Positions 1,132-44,439 of a stretch of DNA of 64,000 nt are shown piece after piece. Origin of the DNA: Psammoneis japonica (lineage: Eukaryota); the NCBI GenBank assembly GCA_008632985.1, contig QPGO01000123.1, positions 1-64,000 of the forward strand, written 5' to 3'. The notes beneath the pieces are model-generated. The model was not told where the DNA came from and did no database searches. It saw only the letters and a program-made list of their open reading frames with translations. The position numbers were made by a program, and so were the translations under genes. Position 1 is the first letter of the stretch, and every line of letters starts with the position of its first letter.

Positions 1132-1133
<2 letters not shown>

Positions 1134-1163: not shown

Positions 1164-1164
<1 letters not shown>

Positions 1165-13600: not shown

Positions 13601-14289
13601 ACCTCTCCTTTGCAATCAGATTTGCTGCACTTTCCTCTGCTCTTTCTGGCGACAGAGTGTGCCTGAGTGTGACCCCCCTGCTTGTTCCAGCAACAAGGTT
13701 TGCGAGACTTGTTGTTTGTTGGCCTCTCTTTCATTTTCCATCTGTGCATGTTTTTGGACATGTGTTCCCCCTTTGTTTTGACCCTTGGATTTTCCTCTTT
13801 TCCTTGGATTCAGATTTCTTGCCTCTCAAGGCAATTTCTTTCCCGCCGCCAGCCAAGTTTTTTCTTCCTCAAGGGGTGGTGTGCACTCTCTTTCCATTTT
13901 TTGCACTCACTCATCATGAGGTTGACCAGTTTGTCAGGACATTCATGCCACTTCTTTCACCATGCTTGCTGTGCATGCGTGTGTGGCAAGATGCACGAGC
14001 TTGTCTTTTGCAACTTGGAAGTTGCGACAAAGGAGGTTGTGTCTTTCGACCAGACCTTGGAGCCTGCAGAGACATGCTTGTCAAGATTCTTGGTTTCACT
14101 TTGATGCCTTCTGTGGTTGTTTTTTGCTGGTGCTGAGGTTTCCTTTTTTGTGCCTTGCTTCTTGGCCGGCGGTCGGCTCTCGGCTGCTGAAGGTGGCTTT
14201 GATGACTCAACCTTCTTCTCTTCCACACTGGTTGACAACCTTCATGAGAACATTTGGACTGACAAAGACTAAAGGATTCTCATGTTGTG

Positions 14290-17200
14290 CTTGAGTTGTG
14301 GAGTGGTTTCCATTTGTGAGGAGCGTTGCACGGATCGATCTCAACAGCCAAACGGAGAGAGATTAGACAGAGAGCTTCAAGCTCCATTCGAGTTTTAAAA
14401 TAGAAGATTAAGGGAGCCCATGTAGAGCGGAAGGGAACAGCAGAAGGAGGCACGGAGGTAGCTGTAGAGATGGCAGAGTAGAAGGGTCGAAGGACGCAAG
14501 ATGAAGGGCGTTTTGAGGATGGCATGGGTGAGGAGGGGGCAGGGAGGGAGGAAGTGAATCGGAGGATGTGCGTAGAAAGGTGAAGAACGACGTTGTAGCC
14601 AAGAGTTTGGGTGGCCCACTGGGATGGGGTGGATGTACGGCAGGTGTTCCCAAAGCGATCGGCGGACAGGCGACGCCATGCGAAGTCAGCAGAGGGAAGG
14701 ATTGCAGACGGAGACGACAAAGCGTAGAGGAAGGCGGAGTAGGAGGCATCGGAGTGACGAAAGTTGGAGGAAGAGGACCAGGGTGGCTTTGGCTGAGAGC
14801 AGACGGAGGAGGATGTAGAACCAAAGAGCAAGCGGTGGCAAAGTAGCCGAGACCACCAAGGTGATCTACAGTGAAGGGGAGCAGGAAGATGCCATTGTTG
14901 TCAAGCAAAGAAACAACAAGGGATCCATCGGCAGAGGAAGCAGAGGGGCCAAGAAACTTCAATCTTGCGCTCGAGTGGTGTGCCTCAGTTAAGACAGGAG
15001 AAGAGGGGGCAGGCAGACCTGGAGGAGGGCGAGAGGAAGCTTGAGGGACGGCAACATCCACTGCAATGTAGTGATGGCGGGAGGGAGCGGAAAGGGAGGC
15101 GGGAGGGGGGATTAAAATGCCGACATCGGCGGGACGGAGGAGCGGGCGGGTGGGGAGCAGGTTGGTGGGTTCGAGATGAACGTCACTGGGGGATCGACAG
15201 AACTCTGCAAGAGGACCCAAAGTTTGGGCTAGGATGAAAACAGCATCACGGAGACCATTGGAGAGCTTGGACTTGTGAGCATGGCGGCAAGAAAAGGCAT
15301 GATCACCACAGGCATCCAGGATGGCATGGCCACAGGGACAGGGAGTGTTGACAAGGGACGGAGGAAGGATGGGGAGACGAAGCTTGCGAAGGGCGGCAAT
15401 GACGTAGACGTCCGAAGAAAGGCGGGAGCTTGGGAAGCGACGGGAGAAGGAATGAAGAGGGAGGCTTGTAAGCGGAGACAGCAATGAAGGGAGCGAAGAT
15501 TGCACGTCGTAAGATGAGTTAGCAAGGATGGAGGTCACTGCTTGTTGTTGATGTTCATGGTAGAGGCGACGAGCCAGGCCAGGGAGAGTGGCCGATTTAA
15601 CCAGGGCAGCCAAGGAAGAAGAGGAAAGGGTAGAGGCGGAAGCCAGAACGGGAGCACAACGGCGGAAGAGCGTATAGAGTCGCAGGGAAGAGCGAGGGTT
15701 GGACCAGGAAGATGGGGAGAGCCGAAAGCAGCGCGGAAGGGAAACAGAAGCGCCAGATGGCAGGCTGACACCGTGCGAAGCAAAGCGGAACGAGCGGAGA
15801 AGCGACACCAAGAAGGAAGGAATGGCAGTGGCTGTTGGATCCCGGAGACCAAACCCGCCTGAGGAGGCAGGAAGGAAGGCGATGGCAATAGAATGGTCAG
15901 GAAAAGGAGCGGCGAAGGAAGTGACGTAGTGAAGAAAGCGGTGAGCAATGGTGAGGAGGAAATCTTGAAACGGAGAGGTCCAGAGAAAGGGGTCGGGAGG
16001 ATTGTCGGGGTCGAAGTTGCAGCAGAAGTCAGCTCCAAGGAGGTGGGCAGAGGATGGAACAAAACAGTGCTTGAAGAGTTGAGCCTGGGTTTGTTTGTCA
16101 TGAAGACGGGTGAGAAGCATGTCAACTTTATCGGAGAGAGCAGAGGAAGCATCGGAAAGGAAGGAGGTGGCGAAGTCATGGGAGCCGAGGGGCTGTCCAA
16201 GGAAGCGAACGCCAGAGGTGAGTTCGGGGTTGCAAGAGGGGTCATTGGTGGGGTTTAAGAAGGAAAGTGCAGCACGGAGAGAATCGGCATGGGAAGGGGG
16301 AAGAGCAGGGATGGGGCTAACACCGGCAATGGAGGTGAGGATCTTGGTTTTATGGAGGTTGAGGGAGATCCCGCAGGGAGCGCCGAGGGCGGAGAAGCGT
16401 TCAAGGAACCATGGGAGTGCGGAATGGGGAAGGAAAGCATGAGCATCATCAACGCAGGAGCCAACTGAGACAGAGGAACGGCCAGGGATTCGTTCTTGAA
16501 GCTCTCAGTTGATTGGACGGAGAACCAGAGAGAGGACCAGGCTGGCAAAGACAGGGCCGAGAGGGCATCCTTGGGCAAATCCCTCTTCTTGAAGAAAGGA
16601 GCCCCAGGAAGAATCAGGTTGGCGATGCCAACATGTGTTGGAACTTTGACATAGAAGGTCAAAAAAAGGAAGCAGAGGATGGAAGGCAGGGGTGGAGGTG
16701 AGAACGTGTCGACAGGCATCTCGGGATGCTTCGTTGAACATGTTGGCAAGGTCAAGAAGAAGAAGAACCTTGGCAGAGTCGGCAGAAGAAAGACATCGTT
16801 CGATGTTGGCAAGAGCAGAGTGAATGAGATAATCGAGGCCACCTTTGACACCAATGCCAAATTGGCCATCTGGGAGGAGGCACTCGGCAAATGCAGAGCC
16901 AAAGAGAGTCATGACGACGGAGCCGGCAATGCGACGGAGAGCAGTGCCGACGCCAATGGGGCGAAGCTTGTTGAGGTCGCTGGCATCTTTATGCAGAGCG
17001 ACAAAGTAGTTTGAAGCAAACAAGGAATGGACGGAGGGAGGAATGGAGCCATGGAGCAGGAGAAGGACAAGCTCACGGAAGGATGACAAGCAGGGACGTT
17101 GAGCAACTCCTGTCGGGGTTTTGGCAGAACAAAGGGCGCAGGACTTGAAGAGGTCGGCAGAATCAGCAAAGACACCGGGGCAGCAGTCCCAGGCTTACAT

Positions 17201-17345
17201 TTGGAGAGAGCAGAAAGAAGAGCATCGGAGGAGAGCTCAATAGGCTCGTTATGAAGGGAGGAGGCCGAACGAGTTGAAGGAGGATTAGGCAGGTCGGAGG
17301 GATGCAGGCGAGGAGGGTAAAGACAGTCGATTGATTCAATCGACA
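14290..17345 (-). mobile_element. Relatively young, 5'-truncated CRE-like non-LTR retrotransposon (RT, zinc knuckle, RLE); pseudogenised
   Basis: KLRPIGVG..RR, QFGIG, LDLANMFN, GFAQGCPLGP, SCVDD, CPCG..D.CGDHAFSC, RPADV, IAVDV. ORFs 16505-17089 and 14408-16120 share a frame, interrupted by a TGA at 16505-16507. Frameshifts near 17180 and 14835. Confidence 0.88.
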
Positions 17346-17553
17346 GGGGCTGTTCGCTGATGTCGATAACTTCCTCATGGTTATATATATCTTTTATGTC
17401 ATTGTATTGTTATGACCCATTATCCGACATTGCCGAAAGAACTTTCCGGCAGTAACTAAGTATAAATTTATGAATGCGATATAGAAGAATTTAACATGTG
17501 GTTCTTTTCATGATGAGGTGGTCAGTTCTGATTGGTGTATTCACAATTTCTGC

Positions 17554-17571
17554 TGACGTGGAATGACGTGG
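17554..17571 (+). promoter_or_regulatory. Tandem TGACGTGG motifs (bZIP/CRE-like sites)
   Basis: TGACGTGG at 17554-17561 and 17564-17571. TGACGT is a known diatom bZIP/aureochrome-type core; function here is untested. Confidence 0.3.
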
Positions 17572-17744
17572 TGGCAAGAAATGTTGAAGCTGTGAATTCT
17601 CGAGCGATACTCGATACGCCAGCACGCTACCGGAGGACTCAACCGGTCCCGCCGTCCGTGACTGAAATTTCACCACGGTGAAGCATGAGAGTCGAATCAT
17701 TCGATTGGACTCAACCGGTCCCGATTTTGCATCAAAAACGGCAT

Positions 17745-18393
17745 GTTTTACTTTGATGCATCTCGCCATGGCATACATCGTGATGACGACGCGTTATGCA
17801 GGGGGGATCTTTTTCTACCATTGTTATTAAGAGGTTGATACATTGGTTTGGTTTCCTGGGGTGCTTTGGTTGCTGCACATGCTATAAACGGTTGCGTGCC
17901 TCGACTCGTGACTCGACTGCTGCACGGTACGTGTAACACCTGAATGGTCCACAACGTTGCGCCGGTAAGTTCTTTCTGTGTTTTCTCATTTTATGCCGTT
18001 TATCTACTCACTAAAGATGTTGTTTGTGCTTTGTTACAGCTTCATAAGAGGATACATCGTCTCGTACGGTCGATTATTGTATCTGCAATATTGGCATCTT
18101 TTTCACGTCGTCGTCATCACAAAAGCGTATCCGTTTGGGAGCCTTGTGCTTCATCCCAATCCACATCTTTTGGTACATCTATTTTTACTATTTTTTTGGA
18201 CTTGTGACGAGCTTGATATGTTTTTGAAGGTCTTGGTCGGCTCGTAATCACAGCATGTCGTTTTTCGGCGATAACAATTTCTTGAAAGTGCATGCCGTGG
18301 GAACAAAACGATACGATGGAGTCTTGGGGATACTCACGACGTTGGCATTTGGCAGACAGCCTTGCCATAGTCCAAAGAAGGTAAACCTGTGAG
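17745..18393. repeat. Unclassified dispersed repeat, TpA-retaining copy (inverted homologue of 1-645)
   Basis: By-eye alignment; both copies keep a GGTAAGTTCT splice-donor-like motif. Confidence 0.7.
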
Positions 18394-19554
18394 TATGTTG
18401 TGATTGATTGAGTTTTGGACTCGTTTTGACGAAACTTGCATACCTCACGAGCCTTTTTTGGTGTGTCTCGATCATGCGTACAGGTGTCTGGTCCGTTTTG
18501 ACCCTTTCCACCTACCCTTCAACCGCATTATCATCATTATCTAAGACATGATATTGTCCACGTTATTTTGGGAGATCTTTGTGGTGTAACTACGAATCTA
18601 GGCTTTGCAATGGGTAAAATGGGAAGGTTGAGGCTTGTGTTGGCGGGCTCATCGCCTCCTCCTGAATGCGCGGATGCCACGGACCGCTGATGTTACTTGG
18701 GGGCATAAAAATTGGTAAGGCGACTCAGTTCTACCTTTAAAAGGTGCCCCTAGTGAGTATATTGTTGTGTGTAACCCCAGTCTATTGTTATTGTGTACGT
18801 TGTTCCACTCATATTTTCATTTTGCCTGTCATTTTCCAGTGTGACTATCGTTGACCGTTAAAGCTTGCAGTGGCATTTCCAGGCCCATATTCTACATGAT
18901 AGATATCTTTTGATACTCTTTGCTCATATGGGGAAATCAGATCCTGGAGCAATCAGTTCCTAGTCGGGTGTAGAGAGGTGCAAGTGCAATGGATGAAATT
19001 TGGACCAGGGCACAGATGGAGTTTGGGCGAACGTGCTGTTTCTTCTCGCTGGTAGAGTTAGTTAGCGTGGGTGTGCGTGCAGATGGCCTCTCTATTTAGG
19101 GCTACTACTCTCTAGAGTGCTACAGTGCCACTCTAGAGTAGAACTTGGTGCAAAAGGTAAGAAATCAATTTTTTTGTGATTTTCGACTCGTCGCGGCATC
19201 TTCGGCGTTGTCCGTTGACGACGATAAGTAATCCATTGAAATGACTTATAGACTTATAGCATTTTGTTGTTCTTTAGAGATATGATTATATAGCTTCTAG
19301 TATTCTAGCTTTCTTCAAGGGTAGGATTGTATGGCATGTCCTTCGGGAAGAAGTCGCTTTGCGTTATCATTGCGTTGTGGCGGCACTCTCAAACTCATCC
19401 ATCGCGGCGGCTTGTACGTAGGGCTACGTACTAATTCTAGCGAGCGTCCGTCAGTCAGCCGGCGGACCGGTTGAGGCAGCGGGACCGGTTGAGTCCGCCG
19501 GTAGCACGCCAATCCGAGTACATCCTTCTTCCGCGCTTCTCACTGCTCGCTCAC

Positions 19555-19845
19555 TGCCGAGTATCACGGTCATCTATATTCATTCGTATATTCATTCGTG
19601 GGTGTCAGCCTGGTGTCAAAAGTGTCAAAAGGATGTCAACGATGACACTTTCTAGAAACCTCTTCTCCTTTCTCGATACATCTCGATGCCTCTCGAAAGA
19701 TTGTTTCTTTATATTTCTACGCGGTTTCTTAGTATTAATTCTACGAGATTTCGGAGTAGCCGAATCTCTTTCATTTCTTCTCACAACATTAGCAACAGTC
19801 AACTTTACAACGCTACTTTATACTGTTACTTGGCGCCACTTGGCA
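19555..19845 (+). repeat. Gypsy 5' LTR
   Basis: Direct repeat of 24164-24454 with 6 transition differences by eye. Confidence 0.97.
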
Positions 19846-19918
19846 TAGTAAATTTACTCCCAAACACTTATTCATCTCTCTTGAGATATATCTACCGATC
19901 ATATTGTCCTGACCAGAC

Positions 19919-22900
19919 ATGTCAGCAGAAAACTGCCCATTCGAACTCAAGCGTCCTGACCGCTCTGAGGAAGAGCGACGCAAAGACCAACTCGTGTCTT
20001 TTGAAAGCCCCATTGATCCTGACGATCCAGATGGGCTTAAAACTACGATCGAGGTACGTAAGTTAGCTTCAACTGAACCGGAAGATGTTCTTACCTTCTG
20101 GTCAAACTTCGATGAACTTGTCAACGATCTCGGTGCGGCTGAAGGACAGCCACGTTTCCGGCTCGTGACCAGACTTATGACCGGAACACCAAAAGACGAC
20201 TGGGAAATCGTCGTAAACGAATGCGAAAACCGCGACCAAGTTACATTCGACACTTGTCGTGAAGAATTTCTGCTCCAACACATGGACAGAGAAATTGCCC
20301 TTGACACCAAGGAATGGCTTCAAAGCCTTAAGAAGCCCAGGAACCAAACTGTCAAGTCATTTGTTAATGACATCCGTCGCTTTAATAAGTTGATTGACAT
20401 CATGCCTGCGCCAACCGAAGATGACGCCGAAAGAGTTCCGTCATTCACGGAAGCGGAATTATCCGTAATCCTTCGAAAATGTGGACCAAGATCATGGGCC
20501 GAAACTCAGACTAAAGCCCGTCTTCGCAACTTAAACTTGAACGACCAAGCTCAATACTACGAGACTCTCCGATGTATGGAACAACGTGGTGACAAAGGGT
20601 CTGCCGACAACAACAGACGCAACAACAATCGGAATCGACGCAACAACGGTCGAAATGCGCGTCGCGGCCAGAATGACGACCAAAATCGCGACACCAGGAA
20701 CAGGAACCAAAACAATCGTGAACAAACATGTCCAATCCATGGCGTTGTACATCCGAACGGTCAAGAGTGCAATGTCATCCGTCGTGAACGTGAAAATTGT
20801 GAGCGGAACCGCGCAAATCGGAATGCGCCGAATCAACAAAATGACTCTCGAAACGAGCCGACACACCGCCATCCTACACGGAGCCGCACACGGAACGTCG
20901 AAAACAACAATGTGGACTCCAAAGCTGGTCGCTCCGCTTCTAACGATGTCGACAGCGTCGCGTCAGATGATGTCAACGATGTTTTTGAAGACGTCACGTC
21001 TCTTCTAGACGATTCCATCGAATCCGAAATAGAAGACAATCTCACCACGGAAGCGCGTGTCCAGATGATTGACACTCATTCTGGAATGCACAAGTTCCGT
21101 GTTGCTTTGCTCGATACCGGCGCAAATCGCAATTTTGTGAAGCGCTCAGCCCTTCGCGGGATTCCTCACAAAATCCGTAAATGCAACGTTCCCGTTAAAG
21201 GCCGTTACAGCACCGTTAATCTACACGAGATTGCGACGCTGACATTGAAGTTCCCAGACTTCGCATCGTCCAAGAAGGTTTCCGTCGATGCTTGTGTGGA
21301 AGACAAAGCCGCAGGAAAACATGACATTGTCATCGGAAGAAAAACCGCCACAGAAATGGGACTCGTTTTTGATTTTCGACATCAAACAATCACGTGGGAC
21401 GATGTCACCCTATCCATGCGATCCAAGGGCTCTTTCGACCAAGTCGAAGTTAATGCAATTCATCCCGGCGATGCTGAATTACCCAAGTTCTTCCAGAATG
21501 CCGTCAACCGTCAGGTTCGAGGTGTGACGAGCAATGCGTGCGACAAGCACAATTGTCGCGACATGGTTCTACGCTGCATACACCTTGATGACGATCAACA
21601 GCACCAACTCATCGAACTCTTCGGACGACACCCGCAATTATTCGATGGCACACTTGGAGCTGTACCCGGTGAACCCGTCCATTTGACCCTGAAACCAGGA
21701 TCGCGTCCATGCTGTGCGAAAGCTTGCACTGTTCCGCAAGCGTCATGTCCCATGGCTCGCAAAGAAGTGGATGAATTGGAAAAAATCGATGTCATTACGC
21801 GCAAACTTCACTCTCCTTGGGGCGCATCCTGTCTTTTCCGATCGAAGAAAAGCGGTGGCATCCGTTTCTTATCCGATTTGCGGAAACTCAACGAGTGTCT
21901 CGAACGGCATCCACATCCACTGCCTGTTGTCGACGACGTCGTATGGAAAATGAACGGCTTTACCTGTGCGACATGTTTGGACCTCAACCGAGGCTACTGT
22001 CACTTCGTGCTTGACGACGAGTCAAAAAAACTCTGCGGTGTCATCCTGCCGTGGGGCAAGCATTGCTGCAACCGCCTGCCGCAAGGAATCAAACCGGCAA
22101 GCGACATTTTTCAAGCTTACATGACAGATGTTTTTCATGACATGGAAGACATCACAGTCTACATCGACAACATCATCCTCTTCACCAAGAACAACTTCAA
22201 CCATCACTGTCAACGACTCGAACTCGTCTTGCAACGGCTCCTCGCGAACAATCTTCACGTGCATGTCGAAGAATCCTGTCTCGCCGCCAAAACCGTCGAC
22301 CACTTAGGCTATGCCATGACTGCAAAAGGCACTCAGCCTCAGAAAAAGAAAATCCCACCCTTGCTTCGCTTCGCTCGCCCTCAAAACCGTCGACAATTGC
22401 GTGGTTTCATCGGGTTCGTGAATTGTTTCAAGAAATTGTGGCACCGACGCAGCCACACTCTTACGCCCTTAACTGCGCTGTCATCAGACAAAGTCAAATT
22501 CAAGTGGACTGACGTCCACACGGAAGCTTTCAATCAGATGAAAAAAATTGTGGCGCGCGAAATCCTCCTCCGATTCCCCGACTTCTCTCAACCTTTCAAG
22601 ATCTATCCGGATGCGAGTGATTGTCAACTTGGTGCAGTGATTGCTCAAGATTTTGATGATGGCGAATGGCCAATTGCATTCTACAGCCGAAAATTATCTC
22701 AAGCGCAACGAAACTACACGACAATGGAAAAAGAGCTACTGTCGCTCGTGGAAACGACCGAAAATTTCAAAAGCATCCTTTTTGGTCATCGATGCCACCT
22801 GTTTGCCGATCACAAAAATCTCACATTTGACAAATTCAAGTCAGAACGCGTCAAACGCTGGCGTTTGCTTCTCGAGGAGTGCGACTGCTCTTTCGAGCAC

Positions 22901-24142
22901 CTGCCAGGCCACAAGAATGTCGTGGCTGATTTTTTGAGTCGCCATCCCATTGTCCAAGTCGATCAAAGCAATTACGAGGAAATGACTTCGTTGGAAATCG
23001 ATCCTTCGACATTCCCCGTTACTTTCGACATTGTCGCCGACCATCAGAAAAAAGATTCTGCTCTTCAGCAACGACTCGACAAGTCCGAATCCCACTCAGC
23101 CGAACTGTTCAACGGAAAACAGATTATCCTTTACAAGAACAAGATTGTCCTCCCTCCAACGCTTTTTCCTGCAGTTCTACAATGGTGCCATGAAACTCTC
23201 TGCCACCCTGGTGCCAATCGCACCTGCCAAACTTTGGCTTCACATTTTTACATTCGCGACATGCAGACGAAAGTCCGCACTTTTGTCCGCAAGTGCCGCA
23301 CGTGTTCCAAATCCAAGCACACTACGGCAAACCATGGCGAATTACCTCTTCCAGATACTACTTATAAACCTTGGCAGGCAACTCAAGTCGATCTTTTCGG
23401 TCCCTGGACGTATGCCGACAAAAATGGTGTCGATCGCAAAATCAGAGCCGTTTCAATTATTGATGTCGCAACCCGTTGGGTCGAACTCGCGAACTATAAG
23501 TTCAAAACGTCCGAAGACATTTCACTTATCGTCGATCGCGAGTGGTTTTGTCGCTATCCGCGACCAGAAATTGTCATTTATGACAACGGTTCCGAATTCA
23601 CTTCCGAGTTTACAGATCTCCTCTACAGTTATGGTGTTAAACCGAAACCTACAACAATCAAGAATCCTCAAGCCAACGCGTTCGTTGAACGTATTCATCA
23701 AGTGATAGCCGATTCTCTCCGTGCGATGGATCTCCCTTCTCGCGATCATGATGAAGACACAATTCATGGAATTTTGCAATCCGTTGCATGGGCCTTGCGC
23801 AGTACCTACCATACTGCCCTTATGTCGTCTCCCGGACAAATTGTCTTCGGTCGAGACATGGTCATTTCTGCTACTTATCTTGCGAACTGGAAAATGATTA
23901 ATACCCGTCGCAAGCGCGATGTCCTACGCAATAATCTCCGCGAAAACGCAAAACGTCTTACTTACGACTACAACATCGGCGATCAAGTCTTCGTTATGAC
24001 CAAAGACATCCAACGCAAACTCAACACCAAAGATGGTCCTTTCCGTATCGTACGTGTCCATACCAATGGAACCGTTACCATCCAGCGCTCGCCTCACGTC
24101 ACTGAACGTATCAATATCCGCCGTCTTCACCCTGTCTTCTAA
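19919..24142 (+). CDS. Gypsy gag-pol polyprotein (gag, protease, RT, RNase H, integrase), 1407 aa; open but probably non-functional
   Basis: CPIHG knuckle, LLDTGA protease, LDLNRGY and LPQG, YIDN in place of YIDD, DASD.QLGA, HETLCH..CRTC, DNGSEF, GPF. Confidence 0.95.
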   Translation: MSAENCPFELKRPDRSEEERRKDQLVSFESPIDPDDPDGLKTTIEVRKLASTEPEDVLTFWSNFDELVNDLGAAEGQPRFRLVTRLMTGTPKDDWEIVVNECENRDQVTFDTCREEFLLQHMDREIALDTKEWLQSLKKPRNQTVKSFVNDIRRFNKLIDIMPAPTEDDAERVPSFTEAELSVILRKCGPRSWAETQTKARLRNLNLNDQAQYYETLRCMEQRGDKGSADNNRRNNNRNRRNNGRNARRGQNDDQNRDTRNRNQNNREQTCPIHGVVHPNGQECNVIRRERENCERNRANRNAPNQQNDSRNEPTHRHPTRSRTRNVENNNVDSKAGRSASNDVDSVASDDVNDVFEDVTSLLDDSIESEIEDNLTTEARVQMIDTHSGMHKFRVALLDTGANRNFVKRSALRGIPHKIRKCNVPVKGRYSTVNLHEIATLTLKFPDFASSKKVSVDACVEDKAAGKHDIVIGRKTATEMGLVFDFRHQTITWDDVTLSMRSKGSFDQVEVNAIHPGDAELPKFFQNAVNRQVRGVTSNACDKHNCRDMVLRCIHLDDDQQHQLIELFGRHPQLFDGTLGAVPGEPVHLTLKPGSRPCCAKACTVPQASCPMARKEVDELEKIDVITRKLHSPWGASCLFRSKKSGGIRFLSDLRKLNECLERHPHPLPVVDDVVWKMNGFTCATCLDLNRGYCHFVLDDESKKLCGVILPWGKHCCNRLPQGIKPASDIFQAYMTDVFHDMEDITVYIDNIILFTKNNFNHHCQRLELVLQRLLANNLHVHVEESCLAAKTVDHLGYAMTAKGTQPQKKKIPPLLRFARPQNRRQLRGFIGFVNCFKKLWHRRSHTLTPLTALSSDKVKFKWTDVHTEAFNQMKKIVAREILLRFPDFSQPFKIYPDASDCQLGAVIAQDFDDGEWPIAFYSRKLSQAQRNYTTMEKELLSLVETTENFKSILFGHRCHLFADHKNLTFDKFKSERVKRWRLLLEECDCSFEHLPGHKNVVADFLSRHPIVQVDQSNYEEMTSLEIDPSTFPVTFDIVADHQKKDSALQQRLDKSESHSAELFNGKQIILYKNKIVLPPTLFPAVLQWCHETLCHPGANRTCQTLASHFYIRDMQTKVRTFVRKCRTCSKSKHTTANHGELPLPDTTYKPWQATQVDLFGPWTYADKNGVDRKIRAVSIIDVATRWVELANYKFKTSEDISLIVDREWFCRYPRPEIVIYDNGSEFTSEFTDLLYSYGVKPKPTTIKNPQANAFVERIHQVIADSLRAMDLPSRDHDEDTIHGILQSVAWALRSTYHTALMSSPGQIVFGRDMVISATYLANWKMINTRRKRDVLRNNLRENAKRLTYDYNIGDQVFVMTKDIQRKLNTKDGPFRIVRVHTNGTVTIQRSPHVTERINIRRLHPVF

Positions 24143-24163
24143 CGTCTCAATTGGGGAAGCGAG

Positions 24164-24454
24164 TGCCGAGTATCACGGTCATCTATATTCATTCGTATAT
24201 TCATTCGTGGGTGTCAGCCTGGTGTCAAAAGTGTCAAAAGGATGTCAATGATGACACTTTCTAGAAACCTCTTCTCCTTTCTCGATACATCTCGATGCCT
24301 CTCGAAAGATTGTTTCTTTATATTTCTACGCGGTTTCTTAGTATTAATTCTACGAGATTTCGGAGTAGCCGAATCTCTTTCATTTCTTCTCACAATGTCA
24401 GCAACAGTCAACTTTACAACGCTACTTTATGCTATTACTTGGCGCCACTTGGCA
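24164..24454 (+). repeat. Gypsy 3' LTR
   Basis: Direct repeat of 19555-19845. Confidence 0.97.
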
Positions 24455-24533
24455 CTCACAAACACCAAACACTTCTCACAAAATCCGTGGATGATTCATC
24501 GTTGCATCTGAAAGATCTGAAAGAACACACACC

Positions 24534-25628
24534 ATGTGCAAGGAAACCACCGAAATCGAGACCGGCGCCTCCACCATTGAGAAGACTGGCCACCAAGATG
24601 ATGCCAGTCGTGCTTCGTCTTCTGGCGCAACGGTGATGGTGGCAAAGGTTCAGCTCAAGAGGATGAAGCTTCTCATGGCTTTCCTTGGGGCGTGCACCAT
24701 TGGTCTCCTCATCTCTGCCATCTGCCTCGCTGTTGATCGCGACAACGAAAGGAACAAGAACAAGAAGAAGGTGGAGGTTGCCACCGTTGAAGGACCCAAC
24801 CCTTGCCAGGGCAAGCGTCCCGAGTTGCCCAATGTTGCTTGTGTGATTGACGAGATGACCCAAACCGGCGAGCAATCCGGTTCGAATGTCACCAAGGGCT
24901 GCAATGGCGACAGCGACACCGACGCTGAACCCATCACCACCTCATGCTTTGAGGCCGGCTTGTGCCCCGTCAATGTACACTGGCATCTTGGTGCCGAGCA
25001 CTGCTCCGCTGGTGAGTTTGACGAGAACGGCACCGGTCCCCTTGATTTCCATGAAGGCCGTCAGGGATTCCGTTGCAAGTGCTGTGATGAAAACGACCCC
25101 AAGTTCACCACTCCCTTCGACTGGCAGCACTGCATTGGCATGATGGTTGGCCAAACCTGCGAAGTTCACTGGCCCCACTCTGCTGCTGGTGCCTGTGGTA
25201 CGCCCTTCCAGTGCCAGACTCCCTTTTGCGATGGTGTTTTTTGCCGCGACGACGTCATCACCAACACTGCTCAGCAGATTGGTGTTCAGTCCCAAGTCTT
25301 TGCCATTGTCAATGATGAGAACTACCACTGCCCCGACTTATTCCGAGGTATGATTGTCGATGGTGACAAGGGAACTGATGTTGCGAAGTACACTGGTTCC
25401 ACCACCGGCACCTCCCGTGACAACGAGATGTGCTCCCCGTTTGCTCCCATCACCTGGCAGGTTGACCGCAAGTGCCATCTCATTTCAGCCTCGAGCTTTG
25501 ACAAGATGTGCATGGACATGAGGTCCCAGGCCGACAACATGAATGACGATCTTTACGCTCACGGATCTCGTGAACTTGTTGATGACGAGCACGCCGCGAA
25601 CAACCAGCAGCTCCGTCGTCGTGCTTAA
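24534..25628 (+). CDS. Delta-class carbonic anhydrase (TWCA1 family) with an N-terminal membrane anchor; many Tyr->Cys/His changes, possibly damaged
   Basis: LCPVNVHWHLGAEH, EVHWPHSAAGACG, DGVFC, IGVQSQVF.IVNDE, YTGSTTGTSRDNE, PITWQVDRKCHLISASSFDKMC, HGSRELV; hydrophobic LLMAFLGACTIGLLISAICLAV. Confidence 0.92.
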   Translation: MCKETTEIETGASTIEKTGHQDDASRASSSGATVMVAKVQLKRMKLLMAFLGACTIGLLISAICLAVDRDNERNKNKKKVEVATVEGPNPCQGKRPELPNVACVIDEMTQTGEQSGSNVTKGCNGDSDTDAEPITTSCFEAGLCPVNVHWHLGAEHCSAGEFDENGTGPLDFHEGRQGFRCKCCDENDPKFTTPFDWQHCIGMMVGQTCEVHWPHSAAGACGTPFQCQTPFCDGVFCRDDVITNTAQQIGVQSQVFAIVNDENYHCPDLFRGMIVDGDKGTDVAKYTGSTTGTSRDNEMCSPFAPITWQVDRKCHLISASSFDKMCMDMRSQADNMNDDLYAHGSRELVDDEHAANNQQLRRRA

Positions 25629-27642
25629 AAGCATGGACAAACTGCCCTCTCTTGTTCATGTGACAAACAACAAGTAGTGTAAAGTGTTTATATTCAAAAA
25701 CATCATACCTCCTATTTGAGTACACCGCAAGAAGTGTTGTACGGAGGAATAATGTATAAACAATATTTGTCTTCGATACCTAAAATACATTCCTGTTTTA
25801 CAATACACTATATCGCGATCATCTCTACTAGCACACGGCACACTACGCCTGATTTACTCTCCAGACAGCATCATAACGAGTATTTTCGGAAATCCGTCGG
25901 CATCGTTTTTGCATATTAGGTATGGTGCGAGTCAGGCCATGTATTCAATGTACTGCATTCCGGGGTACGAATTCTCATGTGAAGCACTGTGATACTTTTC
26001 GCTCATTCGCAAATATTGTTCACATTGGTGCCATAGCAATCACCTGTCCGGAGAGAGAGAGAGTGTGTGTGTGTGTGCCGATTCGTTCGTTCGTTCGAGA
26101 GAAATACAGAGCGTGACAGATCAACGAGTGGCGTCAAAGAAAGCAACAACGACTCTGATATACATCCTTACTTGTATGGTGTCATGAAGCCAGAGCGGGC
26201 TCTTGCAAAAACGACAGTTCATAACTTTTAATAGTGCTTTTTGACCAATATCTCCTGGGTCCACAAAGGCTGACATGCTCTACTAGGCACTAAATGAGGA
26301 CAGGGTACATCGCGAACCACGAACCACATTATTACCCGCGCCAGGCTCAAGATTGAATGAGTGAAAACGCACCGTCCCAATGCGGCCCAATGGTTCAACA
26401 ACCCGGATCAACGTTTCCACTGCCGGGAATAGCAAGCGCTGCTCCGTTGGCCGACAGCTGAATGGACGTGCCAAATTGCTCTGAAAGTACTCGGCACCCA
26501 AGATCCTGGCCTAGATGGATCCAACTTGAGCTTATCATCATAATATATTGAATAGCTATCACCCGCGCCTTCATATATAGATTGCTTCAACCACCAGTAC
26601 AGTACCTTGATCTTCTTGGTATCCCAAAGACGAAACAGCGATGCTCATACAACTTGGTCGTTTTCGCTCAGTGATCAGCGACAAATCGTAGTCAACAGCA
26701 CGGCACTTCTTGGCCGCTTTCAATGGCAGGAAGACGCTGACCGTTCCTTCCAAGTATACGTAAAATTATCAAACGAATACATACCGCAATGCATTACTGT
26801 CGGTGCCCGCAGCTACGACTAGACTGCAGCAATTGAAAAGACAAGAGGGTTCAGAGTCCAAGAAATCCAACGCGTAGTCTCGTGTGGCGTCTCCCATTAG
26901 AGACCATTTTGACACGGAAGAACTCGTACTGGCACGAATAAACTGCACTGCACCAACGAGGTCATCCATGTTGGAATATCATTTCCTTGCGAGACCTAAC
27001 TCCAATATTCGCTCCAGAACCACTCAAGCTAATGGCTGAACCCGTAAATGTCGTACAGTATCTCTGAAGTTGTCGAGTATTGGGCTGAGTCAAATCCATG
27101 ACTATTGGTGGTGGTAGAAATGATGCAATTCCACAGCCCACAAGTATCCATGAACTTGCATTTGTTGTACACACTGGCAAAAACACAAGCCCCTTTCGTA
27201 AACCTGGCCCTCGTCACTTCAGGGATAGACTAATGAAATGCCACCCTTGACTAAAAACGAACTGTTTCCAGGCTTCCTGCCTACATTCGTACACGCTTTT
27301 GTTTTCTCTGTGCTACCAACCACCAGTGTGATGAAGTTGCCGTTCAATTTCAGGTCCCTTTTCGGCGCAATTGTTCGCATGTTGTTGAGTGCATCAGCGC
27401 TGGCCCGCTTGACCCCAATCTTTTTCTGAAGCACTCTGCTCAGAGCCCTCAAGGCGACATGCCCTGGAGAGACCGCTTGATCAATTTCTGAAGGCCAAAT
27501 GTGGTTCCATCCTTGGACAGTGCCACTCGCGAGCCAAAAGAAAGTCTTATGAAAATTTCCGTTGTGTTCACGACGCAACCTGCTTCCACTCGACATTCAA
27601 TGGACGCGTGTTGCCAGAAAGAGTGTCACCTTGCCCAAGACC

Positions 27643-28265: not shown

Positions 28266-28542
28266 TGACAGAAATTGAAGGCAAATGGCAAGAATTCAAA
28301 ACAATGACTCCTTGCTGCTGTCTAAACAGCAGATGAGTCTCCGCTCAGAGACCGTTACAGGAGCCGAAAGACGTGTAAGTCGGTGCAATCGGGCTGCTGT
28401 TGTCATTCTTGTGAGCCTTGTGGCTCGAAAGCAAACTACATCGCGCGTGAACGCGCGGAACTAAAGCACACAAAACTGTGCGCGGTAAACTAAACAGCGC
28501 GCGATACTTCGCGCGCATCCAAATCCTGTTCAAATCCTGTCA
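28266..28542 (-). repeat. CoDi 3' LTR
   Basis: Direct repeat of 35101-35377. Confidence 0.97.
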
Positions 28543-31500
28543 CTCCCCAGTTTGCTTGAGGAGCCACAGAAACAGATTCGACTTTGGATGGAATGAAGTT
28601 CCAGAACATGAGGGGGCGGAGAAGGTCCCAGATTTGGGAGCAACCCCAATGCTTGCTGAGAATGTCAGCAGGGTTGCGGGAGCCTTCGATGAAGTGGAAC
28701 TCAAGGTAACCAGAGGCAATTGCCTCACGCACACGGTGGAACGACAGTGCGGTGTGTCGCTTGTGCAACTTGGAGTGCGGGATGGTGGCACTGTCTACAG
28801 CCGACTTGTTGTCACCGAACATGTAACTGACATTGCGGATCGGGACGCCAAGGTGGCGCAGGGTGATGCGCAGGTCGACAATCTGCTCAACACAATTCCT
28901 TGCGGCAACAAATTCAGATCCGCAGGTTGCAGTCTCCACGGTGGCTTGTTTCTTGGAGAACCAATCAGCCGGGAATTTGTTGAGGAAGTGGAGCATTCCC
29001 ATGACAGAGCGTCCGGTGAGCATGCAATGGCACAAGTTTGCATCGACGCAGTGGGTGGCAGTGACGAACTTGCCAAGGGGCGGTGGAGCGTCCTTCGGGA
29101 TCATCTCTTCTGCTTCACCATAAACGGAATGCATCCATTCACAGGCCGGAGCAGGGAGATCCGAACAGTCGGGCTCTTCCGTGCGAACGCGGAGAGCACC
29201 GTGTCGCATCTTGGAGAGGTGCCCACAGACGCGTTTGGCACGATCCAAGTGGCCTTGACGGGGCGCAGCTCGGAAGCTAGAGAGTGACATGACGGCCGTG
29301 GCAATGTCAATTCGACCAAGGGACACTGCCCATTGGAGTGAACCAACAAGAGACTGGAACTTGTGAATGCCATCGGGTCCCAGCAGTTCGGAAGTGTCCA
29401 GTTCGGGGTGGTCACCCTTCTCTAGAGGTGACAGGGCGTTGGTGGCAGGTTTCTCCCCAAACAGTTGGGCGCAGCTGTCGACCATGCGCTCGATGTACTT
29501 GCGCGGAGACAGGCACAAGGTTCCGTCGGGGTCCCGGGAAAAGTCGCAACCCAGATGGAACTCAATGGGTCCCGCACCCTTGAGCTTGAACTTGTGCTTT
29601 TCCGTGAGAGTGTTGACGAAAGATTGAGGGTCCTTCATGGCAATGGCGAGGTCATCCACATAAACGGCAATGTGTTCACAGTGGTCGCCGTTCCTGCGCA
29701 TCCAAATGTCGGGTTCGGCGTGGCAGGGGAAGAAGCCTTCAGCTAGCAGGCAGTCGGCGAAGCGCTCGTGCCAGCGGAGACCGGAGCTGCGGAGTCCATA
29801 CAGTGCCTTGTGGATGACAAGGATGTGTCCTTCGAGTTTGCCAAATTCGGGTCCAGCTACAATGTAAAGCTTCTCCTTGGTGGTGGCTTCAAGGCAGGCA
29901 TTGCCAATGTCGGTGGCCCATGTCTCCAGCTCGTTGAGTTCGGCCAGGAAAATCATCAGCCGAAGGCCACGGAGGGAGACTGCTCCGGAGTAGACACTGT
30001 CGACAGGCACGTCCGTGAGGTGCCCGTCGGCTGCGAGTCGTGCCTTGTGGCGACCGTCGTGTTTCACGTCGTACACCAGGTGCACTTGGATCTTCTTGTG
30101 TCCCACAGGAGGAGTGGAAGACTTGAAGGGCCCGCAGTCATGGAAGACTTCGTATTCGTCGAGTTGGTCCATCTCGAGATTAGTTGCGTCTCCCCACTTG
30201 CGGTTGCCGTTGCATTCGTCCAGTGACATGGCGTGTTTGTAGTTCCGGGGAACTTCGCATCCGTACTTGTAGCGAGGTGCAGTGCGGAAGGAGCGAAGCT
30301 TGGCTTGGTTGGCCATGCGAAATAGCTTCTTTTGGCGCCTCGCGATGGTGCGGAACCGCTTCCAGCCATCCGTGTCGAGGAGTCCGTTCTCTCGTGCATA
30401 GATGGCACAGGTGACGGGGTCGTCCTTGGCGATGATGGCAAGAGGCTCGGACGTGATCTCCCCACTTTCCCATTCAAGCATGATGTTGTAGCTTGAGCCT
30501 TTCCAGGTTGGGTCGTGAGGCTTCAGAGGTCCTTCGTGTGACACGATGCGTCGAAATTTCCAAATAGTGGTGTCTTCGTCTTCTTGCTCAATGTGATTCA
30601 TGATGTCATTGTAGGCAAGGACTTCCTCGCATTCGTCATTGTTGACAGAGCAGACGAACTTAGTGAGCTCGGGATTGCCGTTCACTTTCCATTCGTGGTC
30701 TTCGACGGCCTTGACGATGCGAGCTCTGTGGCGTTGTCCGTCCTCTTGTGGCTGCATGAGGAAGGTACGTCCAATGATGTCTTGCGGATCGAAAACTGGC
30801 ATCTTGGGTGTCCTGATCTCCCCATCAGGAGAATCGACGGGGTTGTCGTCATGGCGAGATTTGATGATGGGTTCAGGTGGCTCCCCATCAGGAGGATCAA
30901 GACGCAGGTTTCGAACGGCAGGATCGGGGGTAGCGGAGCGAACGTTGGACCGGTGGAGGATCTTCTGAGTCTCGTCAGATAGAATCTTGAAGGTCATCTG
31001 GTGGCCGACGTGCTCAGCAATGCCAACGAAGCGTCCACGCAACTCACGGGATTCGGACGGCCAATCGTAGTCATCGAGGTGGAAGTGCACTGGTTCCCAC
31101 CAGTGAAAGCGAAGCAATGGGCTGATGTCCGGGGTGGATCCAGTGAGAGTCTCGAGGGGCGTGCGCCAGTGGAGACGTGGGGACGCTGTGTGGTTGAGTG
31201 TGAAGCACACGTGCATGAGCGCCAGCAGCCATGTGTGGGCGGGCGAACCAAAACGGTCCATGACAGTGTTCGCCATGCGCTTCACGGTCTGGTGTCAACG
31301 CTCGGCAAAGTTTTGGTGTTGCTGGTGAGGCTCACTTTGCCAGCTGGAGATGAAGAGGGCGCGTAGGATCCCGAGCACTTTGTTGCTGATCTCAACTTGA
31401 GCACGGTCGCTAATGAGTTTGGACGGGGCACCACGTTCACGGATCTGATCCTCGAGTGTGTTGACAAACTCTTTGTCCGTCTTAGTGCCGTAGACGTCAG

Positions 31501-34159
31501 TGACGGCAGACTCGGTGCCAACAAACAGTTGGGCGCTGGTGCAACCAGAGTCGACGGCCGGGGTGTCGGCACAAACGGTGTCAGTGGCGACAGGCTCGTT
31601 GCGGCGGTGCACATTAAGGGCGGGGTTGGGTGATTTGAAGGCCTTGCGAAGGTGTGTACCGGCGGGCATGCGGGCGCACTGCGTGGTGCAGTCAAAAGTA
31701 CGACGGACCGCATCGGTGGGTAGGAAGCCAAAGCAAGGCCGAAGAGACTCGAAGGGGGGGTCCTTGGGCTGTACAGTGCGCTCCGGAGGTGGAACGTCAT
31801 CGCCCTTGGGGTCAATCGCATGCAGATGACACTCGCAGAACACGTCGTCGTTCGGAATGAGGTGATCATCGAGGGCGGACGCGTGATCGGCAGACAAGGA
31901 AGCGGACAAGATGGTCTCGTTGACAATGACACGGTGACGGCAGTTGCCGCATTCGTCAAATGGGTTGGCAGTGGGATCGTCCTGCAGGTCAGAGATCGCG
32001 TCGTGCCACTGGTCGTCGTCAGTGACAGAGTGATCGAGGACGGAAGGGTCCCATGTGTCATCACCGGTGAGGATGACATGGGGCAGGGTGTCCCATTCGG
32101 CGTCAGTGCAAGGTCGCATGGCAACACAAGGCAGGCCAGCCTTGATGTCAATGGGGATGACATAGCCATCAGGAGTGGCAACACGTTGCAAGCCGTTGGG
32201 CACCTTGACAGAGCGATCGTTGACATCCTGTTTGCACCATTCGAGCTGGCCGCAGGAATGGATGGTCTTGCCCTTGCCCGTGCATGCGCACTGATGGAGG
32301 ATGGCGATGACGGGACCACGCTGGGTCTCAATGACGGCACCAGCAGTGACAATGGGGATGTCCACCAATTGATGATCGTCAATGCCCTGAACGTCGACTT
32401 GGCGAGAGGTGCGTGCAATGACGCGAACGTCGTCGCCAGCAATGCCGCCGTTGGCCCCACGATCGACTGGAGCACCAGTGCGTGTGGAGCGATGAGCAGA
32501 GGCAGAGCAAATGACATTGTGGTTGTCAACGCGGCGGCAAGTGCGGCCATTAAGTTCTGTGTCATCTGCAGAGGCTGGCGGGGTAGAGGAAGCAGCGGAT
32601 GGCCCCGGTCGACTGGCATTGGGGGCTTGGTTAGGAGACAACAGACGTTGCAGATCACCGGGTGGCAGTGGCTTGCGCTTGGTGAGGTGCGCCAGGATGG
32701 GATTATCCGAAGTGGCGTCCACATGTGGAGCGGAGTCACCAGAGTCAGCAGGAGTCGTGTTGGACAAGTTGACACCACCGTCACTCCCAAGGCGTTGGTC
32801 GTGAAGGTTGGCCGTAACAGACTCATGGCAGTTGCTGGCTCGCGGGTTGCGGGGAGGCGGACGAGAATGCTCAAGGATGATCGCCTTGGAGGAATCGGGC
32901 AACGAATCCCAGAGCCGTTGGTGGTCGGGAGGGAGACGTCTCCATTGGACACCGGTGAGGCTGGGACCGCGGGTGTAGGCAGCATTGGCTTGAAGGACGT
33001 CAACGTCGCTGTCAATGTCGTAGAACACATCGTCGGACGGTTCCTCGGAGTGGACGTCGTGTGCGCACATGGCGCGTCGGGGAGCTCGAGGTGTCGTCTT
33101 GGGTTGAAACGTGCTGTCGTGCTGAGCTGCCGCGGAGAGGAGCAAGCCACAGCATTGATCGTATGTGAGGCTCTTGCCACTCTGCGTACGATGCTGATCA
33201 GCTTGGTTCTTGACAGCACGGAGTTCCTCGACAGGGTGCACGGCATTCTCGAGCATGACGCGCTTCTGTCCTTCAGAGAAGTGGTCACTGGCCGGGATGA
33301 GTGCCTCGTGCTTGCGCAACTGATCTTGCCAATGAAGGATGAACCCGTGGGTCGGACCTTTCCAAGTGCCATCACCAAGACGTGCGGTGGTGAGGTGCGT
33401 CAGCAGGGTGGAGGACTCGACAGATGCGCGGGTGGAGGCAAGCGCGCACTCAGACAAGGAGCGGTGGACGGTCTGTGCATCAGAAGACCCCACATTTTCG
33501 CGAATGAGAGCCTTGCCCTTGTCGGTGAGAAGGATGCGTTCGAAGACGGCGAACATGTGCTTTTGCTGTTCAGCAAAGAGCAGTTTGTCTTCGGGGCTGG
33601 TCGGTTTGTACGACGAGTCTAGAATGCACTCGACGTCTTGGGCACGGGCTTGTGCCACAAGTGAGGTGTGCCAAGTGTGCCACTGCTTGTCGGATTTGAG
33701 AGCCGTGAAAGCGGTGGGATCACGCTTGATGCCTCGCTTGAAGTCCCGCACCGGGTCGCGTGCCTTGGTCGGGTTGGTGACATGTGGAGGTGCAAGGGGT
33801 GAGCTGCCGATGGACACAGAAGACATGCAGTCGGGGCTGAGGCGGCAGGCAAGGAACTCGTCATGCGCGAACAAAGAGGAGTCATTGGCAACGTCAAGAC
33901 CTTTGTGTGCTTTGACAATGTACAGACTGACCAGTGCTGCTAACATGTTCTTGTAACCACGGGGCAAAGGGATTGCATTAGTGCCGTTGTCGCACTCAAG
34001 CGAGTCGATTTGGGACGGCATGAACGTGAATGGTTCCTGATGCGAGTCCGTGCCGTCTTGGGCCAAAGCCAAACGAAGAGGACTCCCAGCACCTTGGGCA
34101 AGCACGGTTCCAACAACGTGCTCGAAACCATCGGTTTGTTGCTGACGAGTGAGAACCAT
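28490..34159 (-). pseudogene. CoDi gag-pol (gag, protease, integrase, chromodomain-like segment, RT, RNase H) with one in-frame TGA at 31295-31297
   Basis: FKRGIKRD gag, VDRGANGG protease, LISDRAQVE and SEPHQQHQNFAER*HQTVKR integrase, WKFRRIVSH..LEWESGE, KARLAADG, YVDD, SEF..GDN..NPADILSK. Confidence 0.93.
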
Positions 34160-35100
34160 GGTGGACAAAAGTGGTGTCAGGACAATCAATTCTGGTTGGG
34201 AAGCGAAGGTAGACTCGAAACTTGGGTGAGAACAGACTTGACTTGAAACAGACTTGACTTGAAATCTTGAACCATCTTAAAATCAGAAGTCGCCGGGCTT
34301 TGTCATCCCGTTCGTTGTTGAGTGCTAAACTTCCTGTCCGGTCCGCAGAGTTGTGCCGGCACGTCCGAACCCGCAGCCAGCGGCGCTTTGGGTTGCTTAC
34401 GAGCGGAGCAGCGGGTTGTAAACCCCTGCAGGTGAGCTGACTAGAGGTGGACAAGACCCCCGAACCGTTCTCATTTTATGTCGGTTGGATTTCCCGATCA
34501 GGCTGGCCAGTTGACGCAGGCGTCAGGCGCTGTGGACGAACGAACAAACGCGGGAAAGCACCCTCGCCCCAACGCAGGCTGTAATCACGGCTGCTTGCTC
34601 TCACAGTCGTCCTCGTGGACCTGGCAGAACTGTGGAGCACCAGCAGTCCGGGGCAGATCAGGTGCAATGGACTCGGTGTGCTTGCAGAGTGGCAGCAAAA
34701 CCGCAGTCCGAAGAGTGGATAAAGGTTCTTGGCCGTGAAGACATGCACACACATGTGTGTGGCCTCAGCGACTAAGATCCTTGAATGTGCAGGGTTCTTG
34801 ACCGTTAACCGAGAAATGGGTATATCAAGGGATGTTGATCAAGGATAGACTTGGATGTGACCGTTGAATATAAGTCTTCAGCGATCAAAGGTAGTATAAT
34901 CAATCCAGACATCCAGCGGTAAGGAGACTTGACGGTGACGTTAACTTCCTGCCGATGCCCTGGCATTGAATGCGCGTAGACTTGCCGATGTATGTAGAAC
35001 ATGTGCGGAGGTCCACGCAGAATTGAAATGGCGTCGTTGGTAAATCAACGACGACGATGGCGGTTGCTCAATGGGTTGACAATGAGCAAGACTGTTAATC

Positions 35101-35377
35101 TGACAGAAATTGAAGGCAAATGGCAAGAATTCAAAACAACAACTCCTTACTGCTGTCTAAACAGCAGATGAGTCTCCGCTCAGAGACCGTCACAGGAGCC
35201 GAAAGACGTGTGAGTCGGCACAATCGGGCCACTGTCATCATTCTTGTGAGCCTTGTGGCTCGAAAGCAAACTACATCGCGCGTGAACGCGCGGAACTAAA
35301 GCACACAAAACTGTGCGCGGTAAACTAAACAGCGCGCGATGCTTCGCGCGCATCCAAATCCTGTTCAAATCCTGTCA
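35101..35377 (-). repeat. CoDi 5' LTR
   Basis: Direct repeat of 28266-28542. Confidence 0.97.
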
Positions 35378-35382
35378 GAAGA

Positions 35383-36260: not shown

Positions 36261-36267
36261 CCGATGG

Positions 36268-44400: not shown

Positions 44401-44439
44401 CCAAGCCTCAGGCAGCCGCTGCAAGAAGTGGTGCAAATT

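Follow-up and report, generated by a model that had tools for sequence, protein, structure and literature searches.

In fungal repeat-induced point mutation (RIP), C is changed to T at CpA, which turns CpA into TpA, enriches TpA and creates stop codons. A mutator tied to TpA itself has been described in the chlorarachniophyte Bigelowiella natans, where, in mutation-accumulation lines, integrated DNA of giant viruses and virophages mutates at a rate raised 1000-fold and all of the changes are A to G or T to C at TpA (Mettrop et al., bioRxiv 10.64898/2026.01.13.699255, 2026). According to the main text of the same preprint, TpA-depleted coding sequences of B. natans are transposon-like and enriched in reverse-transcriptase and DDE domains; an ADAT2-like protein is the candidate enzyme, adenine deamination in DNA is the proposed chemistry, and DNA editing by ADAT2 is cited (10.64898/2026.01.13.699255). 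Here we examine a 64,000-nucleotide stretch of the Psammoneis japonica contig QPGO01000123.1 (assembly GCA_008632985.1, positions 1 to 64,000; hereafter the window), which holds long terminal repeat (LTR) retrotransposons and an open reading frame (ORF) for a delta-carbonic anhydrase. We consider it likely that this gene, a member of a multi-copy family, was hit in place by a TpA-specific transition mutator that also degrades the LTR retrotransposons around it.

The window shares with B. natans a restriction to TpA of A-to-G and T-to-C transitions, which yield TpG or CpA depending on strand, and a chromosomal substrate (10.64898/2026.01.13.699255). The hosts differ, B. natans being a chlorarachniophyte, whereas the homologues of the window's host genes come from diatoms, in another supergroup; a Deltex-like host gene at 62275-63528, for example, has named homologues that are all from diatoms (Attheya, Cylindrotheca, Amphora, Conticribra, Pseudo-nitzschia and Fragilariopsis). 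Depletion also goes deeper here, with observed/expected TpA of 0.02-0.15 over tens of kilobases versus 0.45 for the nucleocytoplasmic large DNA virus (NCLDV) region of B. natans (10.64898/2026.01.13.699255), and the targets in the window are LTR retrotransposons and one ordinary host-family gene. Furthermore, a preference for the base 3' of the A (T[A]T > C > G >> A) could be estimated in the window, whereas none appears in the preprint's main text. That main text likewise contains no named host-gene victim, no diatoms and no strand or context effects; its supplementary tables could bear on host genes and context (10.64898/2026.01.13.699255). Searches of a literature library, including searches by term within a 2009 paper on diatom retrotransposons (PMC2806351), gave no report of the TpA signature in diatoms.

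Fungal RIP resembles the process seen here in being a defense-like mutator that makes transitions tied to a dinucleotide, wrecks transposons and is able to harm host genes. Its direction, however, is the opposite: the window loses TpA, gains CpA and TpG and loses stop codons, so that its composition is not that of RIP. In addition, a high-copy repeat beside the delta-carbonic anhydrase gene has not been hit, and the TpA profile of the window shows no contiguous spread from a mutated repeat. Adenosine deamination of the ADAR and ADAT type has the A-to-G outcome in common with the window, as well as a T or U before the edited A. Unlike ADAR RNA editing, though, the divergence of LTR pairs in the window reflects action on DNA after integration, and in old elements both strands are hit.

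Tyrosine and cysteine in the delta-carbonic anhydrase copy

The ORF matches the Pfam family PF10563 ("Delta carbonic anhydrase", CA_like) with an E-value of 4.3e-45 and a score of 154.5 bits against a cut-off of 26.3, its residues 142-321 spanning positions 3-181 of the 181-position profile, which makes it a member over the whole domain. It is intact, full length and intronless. With the diatom delta-carbonic anhydrases (TWCA1 type) it shares an N-terminal hydrophobic helix and the conserved His and Cys residues of the family. The His motifs are retained as HWH (VNVHWH..EH) and EVHWPH, as expected of a family member. An alignment of the window protein with 25 homologues (54-70% identical; 26 rows) has invariant columns at H149, H151, H156, H212 and H215 and at eight cysteines (103, 144, 181, 200, 237, 300, 314 and 326); all 10 conserved Cys of the family are kept, Cys91 and Cys221 being conserved at at least 90% in this alignment. 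A search for a solved structure related by sequence found none, and an AlphaFold2 model built from the 26 rows (mean predicted local distance difference test score, pLDDT, of 45.9) was too poor to use apart from its confident N-terminal helix at residues 36-75.

The difference from the family lies in its tyrosines, most of the conserved Tyr of the domain being absent from the window copy: 11 Tyr positions, mostly conserved ones, have been replaced, 10 of them by Cys and one by His. A sequence-only reading of this DNA had described an open frame of 364 codons with 3 Tyr and 22 Cys, and a recount gives the same figures, with Tyr at 264, 286 and 341. It had also pointed out that delta-carbonic anhydrases carry Tyr where this protein has Cys, which holds for each motif that it named: the 25 aligned homologues have Tyr at KGC (123), TSC (138), EHC (157), KCC (183/184), QTC (209), FQC (227), PFC (232) and YHC (265, now His, and 266, now Cys), rather than the same Cys residues. 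Seven of the replaced positions sit at columns with Tyr in 68-100% of these homologues, whereas Cys64 and Cys183 correspond to Tyr in the closest homologues only. In a larger set of 120 homologues, the nine conserved Tyr columns comprise 1076 cells, of which 1010 are Tyr, 52 Phe, 2 Cys and none His. No case comparable to the window copy was found among these 120, apart from one environmental protein (P0037; 293 aa, 68% identical) in which three of these conserved Tyr positions are Cys (EH-C-S, Q-C-QTPF and SY-C-W). This protein, whose DNA locus is not among the 80 used below, may represent a partly hit gene in another diatom.

The same shift is visible when the gene is set against a baseline of 80 environmental delta-carbonic anhydrase loci and ORFs at the DNA level. 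Tyr makes up 0.82% of the window protein, compared with a mean of 4.31% and a minimum of 2.84% in the homologues, and Cys 6.04%, compared with a mean of 3.06% and a maximum of 4.26%; observed/expected TA in the ORF is 0.13, against 0.59 on average (standard deviation, SD, 0.10; minimum 0.40). Over the aligned columns, 7 TA dinucleotides remain where 31.5 are expected (homologue minimum 13), TG has risen to 103 from an expected 75.9, and CA stands at 81 against 85.6. These 7 are all the TpA left in the ORF, besides that in the TAA stop.

A codon alignment was used to ask what had become of individual sites. At the 13 sites, all of them Tyr codons, that are TA in at least 50% of the 80 homologues, the window has TG seven times, CA once, TT three times and TA twice, whereas leave-one-out controls on each of the 80 homologues keep TA at 89% of sites on average and show at most one TG or one CA each. 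The sequence-only reading had proposed counting TA-to-TG/CA changes against all others, and the count bears out its expectation: the window copy has 15 unique substitutions at columns with at least 60% consensus, and a single TA-to-TG or TA-to-CA change explains 11 of them, namely Tyr to Cys at 123, 138, 157, 184, 209, 227, 232 and 266, Tyr to His at 265, and Thr to Ala at 62 and 257, the last two through T|ACC becoming T|GCC. I299M would be a twelfth, provided that the old codon was ATA, which leaves T81E, Q180R and A327M as substitutions that do not fit TpA. Thus ten cysteines and one histidine of this copy stand at former Tyr codons.

TpA-type transitions in the surrounding retrotransposons

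An element inserts with two identical LTRs, and differences between them have therefore arisen in the chromosome. In the copia element of the window, 12 of the 12 positions at which the LTRs differ are of TpA type; in a young gypsy element upstream of the gene, the six differing positions comprise five of TpA type and one of CpG type. Over both pairs, 17 of 18 differences lie at TpA sites, and among them are five dinucleotides at which one LTR has TG and its partner CA. The mutator thus demonstrably acts on integrated DNA. The same changes, TA to TG or CA, mark the delta-carbonic anhydrase gene, as had been proposed from the sequence: transitions confined to TpA account for 11-12 of its 15 unique substitutions, the paralogue has TA in 6 of 6 TpA-type differences, and the combination of clustered TpA depletion with CpA and TpG enrichment is found both in a 1-kb profile of the window and, as TA and TG counts, in the ORF itself. 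The gypsy and copia elements are selfish DNA; the delta-carbonic anhydrase is a host-family gene with TpA-normal flanks.

Depletion is most complete in two saturated blocks, where the 1-kb profile gives TpG and CpA observed/expected of 1.3-2.1 and CpG is low as well. Together with a stretch at 56000-58000, the blocks at 1-14200 and 35378-52000 have observed/expected TpA of 0.02-0.2, CpG of 0.02-0.6 and TpG or CpA of up to about 2. Because CpG is depleted in the blocks, unlike in the delta-carbonic anhydrase gene (0.78) and the young gypsy (1.33), a slower, second decay of CpG seems to follow the loss of TpA. The old gypsy pol has His or Cys, about equally often, where the young gypsy has Tyr, from which it follows that both strands were hit.

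The TpA dinucleotides that survive in the saturated blocks are not a random sample: T[A]A is enriched among them (0.51 versus 0.20), T[A]T is depleted (0.07 versus 0.28), and T[A]C is depleted too. Rough relative rates by the base after the A, fitted on the assumption that the ancestral composition was that of unmutated regions, are 2.35 for T, 1.71 for C, 0.85 for G and 0.15 for A. At the level of tetranucleotides, survival is 0.004 for ATAT and 0.012 for ATAC, compared with 0.45 for CTAA and 0.53 for TTAA. The mutator thus seems to prefer a pyrimidine after the A.

Changes of this type can erase TAA and TAG stops but cannot create any stop. TAA and TAG occur 2.5 and 1.3 times per kilobase in mutated blocks versus 8.4 and 9.3 times in normal regions, and the removal of stops without replacement explains why mutated blocks are filled with long overlapping ORFs. 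Such ORFs, 150-400 aa long, are numerous at 36000-52000 in several frames, and the four in which Tyr was counted have none; a Pfam search with 14 long ORFs of the second block left 13 without a match and gave one weak MAM33 match below the cut-off. For the same reason the frame of the delta-carbonic anhydrase would stay open under this mutator, and its openness would say nothing about function. The coordinates of the gene, the elements and the tract limits discussed below are collected in Table 1.

Table 1. Features of the window that bear on the TpA-mutated delta-carbonic anhydrase gene
Feature	Positions	Strand	Remarks
Delta-carbonic anhydrase ORF, 364 aa, open	24534..25628	+	Pfam PF10563; former Tyr positions now 10 Cys and 1 His
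Leader of 79 nt, LTR end to ATG	24455..24533	+	No TpA versus 4.6 expected, P(0) = 0.010; begins with CTCAC, a 5-nt copy of the target-site duplication
Post-stop 46 nt, possible 3' end of tract	25629..25674	+	No TpA versus 2.7 expected, P(0) = 0.07
Downstream flank, single copy by contig depth	25675..27400		TpA observed/expected 0.76; forms the 3' boundary of the tract, between the gene and the mutated block that follows
Pre-insertion upstream sequence, now cut off from the gene by gypsy	19520..19554	+	No TpA, GC-rich, 1.0 expected: uninformative
TpA-normal upstream stretch	17200..19519		TpA observed/expected 0.5-1.5; from 18500 on, a non-hypermutated repeat
Young gypsy LTR retrotransposon, inserted in the gene's upstream region	19555..24454	+	LTRs 19555-19845 and 24164-24454 (291 nt); TG..CA ends
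Copia LTR retrotransposon	28266..35377	-	LTRs 28266-28542 and 35101-35377; target-site duplication GAAGA
Old gypsy pol (reverse transcriptase, RNase H, integrase)	9023..11428	-	0 Tyr
Saturated hypermutated transposon block	1..14200		TpA observed/expected 0.02-0.15; TpG and CpA 1.6-2.1; CpG 0.02-0.6
Second saturated hypermutated block	35378..52000		TpA observed/expected mostly 0.03-0.2

Extent of the mutated tract and competing explanations

The mutated tract runs from the leader to about the stop codon, and some 25 of about 31 expected TpA have been lost from it. Beyond the stop TpA is abundant again, as the sequence-only reading had remarked: positions 25601-25800 contain 17, and TpA resumes, at normal density, from 25675. 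Because the flanks on both sides are TpA-normal, the gene is an isolated mutated islet of about 1.2 kb and not the edge of a mutated block. Within the ORF, surviving over expected TA in successive bins of 220 nt is 0/4.6, 0/5.6, 1/6.1, 5/10.3 and 1/4.9 from 5' to 3', so that the first 440 nt lack TpA altogether and the survivors all lie further along.

The family to which the gene belongs can be followed in one sequencing run that carries 0.91 of the gene's sampled words and whose assembled contigs were aligned over 18500-27000. Contigs identical to the window have depths of 50.8 (24455-24819), 51.5 (25257-26040) and 57 (26109-26829). In the conserved middle of the gene they are joined by up to nine further contigs of at least 80% identity, and the summed depth reaches 517.6 at 25159, or roughly one single-copy depth per contig; we read these further contigs as paralogues or their alleles. 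At six of the 15 differences listed over the gene, the window has TG or CA where the other contigs have TA (25159, 25213, 25228, 25302, 25326 and 25330, the codons of Cys209, Cys227, Cys232, Ala257, His265 and Cys266), and the reverse pattern does not occur among those listed, which are a sample. We conclude that, within a family that otherwise keeps its Tyr, the window copy is the member that was mutated; the duplicated paralogues that the sequence-only reading had suspected are present. A second library of the same sample (X2, recorded as "DNA?") covers, deeply and over the same interval, the upstream repeat and the coding sequence of the paralogues, has almost no cover within the gypsy element, and holds next to none of the window copy's sampled words and nothing identical to that copy; an RNA-like library with this copy silent would give such a picture, but no conclusion was drawn from it.

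A homology-dependent process like RIP could in principle have marked the gene as a duplicated member of a multigene family, in which case the limits of the tract would be those of the duplicated segment. The paralogue contigs, each at near single-copy depth, are of the kind that such a process would need, and one of them resembles the window only from the ATG to the neighborhood of the stop codon, with loose ends at 24533 and 25618 that lie close to the ends of the TpA-free tract. Delta-carbonic anhydrase genes also occur in tandem, two of them (L031 and L045) lying on one 8.3-kb environmental diatom contig, and tandem duplication would therefore be a usual route by which the family grows. RIP hits both partners, however, whereas the readable paralogue contigs keep TA at all six of the sites listed above. 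Moreover, in the contigs with listed pieces, about 11-19% of positions differ from the window (the upper figure being a single first piece, 28 of 147), which is low identity for homology sensing. The repeat at 17200-19554, whose contig depth measured from 18500 is about 10-70 times that of single-copy contigs, has normal TpA and lies directly beside hypermutated DNA, so that copy number alone does not draw the mutator. In B. natans, too, the hypermutated viral region is single copy (10.64898/2026.01.13.699255). We therefore regard homology-dependent targeting as unlikely, although it fares better than the other alternatives.

A second alternative places the mutation in RNA: the messenger RNA would have been hyper-edited from adenosine to inosine at UpA, and its complementary DNA (cDNA) inserted as a retrocopy or recombined into the gene. 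The tract is about the size of a transcript, leader included, the gene has no introns, and the neighborhood is rich in retrotransposon reverse transcriptases. Furthermore, the Tyr codons changed 10 times by A to G on the sense strand, giving Cys, and once by T to C, giving His (naive P = 0.006). Most of this sense bias is explained by sequence context, because the sense strand of Tyr codons presents the favored T[A]C, whereas the opposite strand mostly presents the poorer T[A]G; a context model expects 7.1 TG among 11 and gives P = 0.049 for one or fewer CA, and over the whole ORF TG minus CA is merely 1.3 SD above the homologues. After these two controls, we rejected sense-strand-only mutation as proof of a transcription-coupled mechanism. 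The hallmarks of a processed retrogene are likewise missing, with no poly(A) run past the stop and no flanking direct repeat longer than 7 nt, the length of the longest shared flanking word. The lack of introns is uninformative, since environmental delta-carbonic anhydrase genes from genomic DNA also read in one segment. Conversion by cDNA should favor the 3' end, yet the 5' end is the more completely mutated, and both the LTR pairs, which place the mutator on integrated DNA, and the two-stranded losses of Tyr in the old gypsy speak against an RNA intermediate. All told, this route is improbable.

Still less probable is that no mutator was involved and that the gene is a functional, adaptively Cys-rich paralogue with strong codon bias. 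Such a paralogue would be consistent with the intact, full-length ORF, with the retained HWH and EVHWPH motifs and conserved cysteines, and with the scarcity of other changes at conserved columns. Against it stand, however, the non-coding leader, which is free of TpA too, and the Thr-to-Ala changes of the T|ACC-to-T|GCC type. The neighboring transposons and LTR pairs bear the same signature, the family almost never has Cys at the nine conserved Tyr columns, and an open frame is expected under this type of mutation whether the protein works or not.

The remaining alternative, which the sequence-only reading had listed first of two possibilities, starts from the young gypsy element. Its 5-bp target-site duplication is intact (CTCAC at 19550-19554 and 24455-24459, 24460 being the first base past it), and its 3' LTR ends 79 nt upstream of the ATG. 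The gag-pol ORF of 1407 aa (19919-24142) is open, yet has Cys or His at some usual Tyr positions, with observed/expected TpA of 0.36; among the differences listed between genomic copies of the element, 13 of 15 are of TpA or CpG type. In one contig, 19549 is followed directly by 24455, with 4905 nt skipped and five letters shared. This contig represents the empty site and bridges the element at its target-site duplication, and the sequenced material is therefore polymorphic or heterozygous for the insertion. Another contig begins exactly at 24455, with no differences from the window and a depth of 50.8, equal to that of the downstream flank (51.5 and 57). On this evidence, although contigs can hide variants, the 5' part of the gene appears to be mutated in the same way on the insertion-free chromosome. 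The gene was probably hit independently of the adjacent LTR and before the gypsy inserted. That a mutator aimed at the gypsy leaked into its neighbor could appeal to the closeness of the LTR, to the TpA-free 5' 440 nt of the ORF and to the five TpA-type differences that make the element itself a target, but is hardly credible when the supposed source is far less mutated than the spill-over (20 TpA remain in the 3' LTR, the last at 24436, with six positions differing from its twin, versus 7 in the whole ORF), the target-site duplication is intact and the same run contains both the empty site and the full-depth contig.

What we favor, then, is the in-place mutation of one family member. Chemically, the likeliest event would be that adenine in DNA is deaminated to hypoxanthine at T[A]N, preferably where a pyrimidine follows; TpA to TpG on one strand is TpA to CpA on the other, and the gene would have been struck at its present chromosomal place. 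A single gene-sized unit, the 79-nt leader and the coding sequence, would have been hit up to a point near the stop codon, with the removal of about 25 of about 31 TpA and the conversion of ten conserved Tyr codons to Cys and one to His. We prefer to think that the mutator is directed to silenced chromatin or to transcription units, that is, to transposons and occasionally a silent paralogue, and not to repeats as such. Judged from its sequence, the enzyme encoded by the window copy is probably inactive, a dead family member with an open frame. Of the two outcomes that the sequence-only reading had offered, collateral damage and accelerated diversification, the former would seem to fit better.

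Several observations weigh against this account. The paralogues keep their TA, and a RIP-style hit on both copies is not seen. Just three window-unique substitutions at conserved columns are not of TpA type and the ORF is full length, because of which continued selection on the rest of the protein, and with it a functional enzyme, is conceivable. The gradient from 5' to 3' is weak (Fisher P = 0.027 for Tyr sites and 0.066 for all TA), and a transcription-coupled mechanism has little independent support. Finally, the claim that both alleles are mutated relies on contig depths, and assembled contigs can hide variants.

Implications for diatom genomes and the delta-carbonic anhydrase family

Our findings look like a second lineage, after B. 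natans, with a TpA mutator, here in a diatom, where it acts at saturating strength on integrated DNA and counts a host gene among its targets. We say second because the host genes of the window are diatom-like and because TpA-only hypermutation has so far been reported in the B. natans preprint alone, as far as the main text of that work and our literature searches extend. Should the window be typical of its genome, one of the major groups of phytoplankton has the same defense at near-saturating strength. LTR identity would then be unusable for dating insertions in this genome, because LTR pairs differ almost solely at TpA sites. Long ORFs within repeats would be no evidence of function, and among predicted genes there may be Tyr-less, Cys-rich "proteins" that are no more than wrecks left by mutation.

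The delta-carbonic anhydrase copy is also a natural experiment on how such a mutator is aimed, since it offers a single gene-sized tract with TpA-normal flanks and an adjoining high-copy repeat that has not been mutated. More tentatively, and with the odds somewhat against us, we propose that diatoms, like the unrelated Bigelowiella, have a genome defense based on a TpA-specific DNA adenine deaminase that rewrites integrated retrotransposons, is aimed at discrete silenced units rather than at repeats, and occasionally removes a host paralogue from leader to stop. Because the frame survives, the Tyr-to-Cys and Tyr-to-His changes could give rise to new protein variants in addition to dead genes. 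For the carbon-concentrating gene families of these organisms, the consequence is that members can be lost through TpA mutation.

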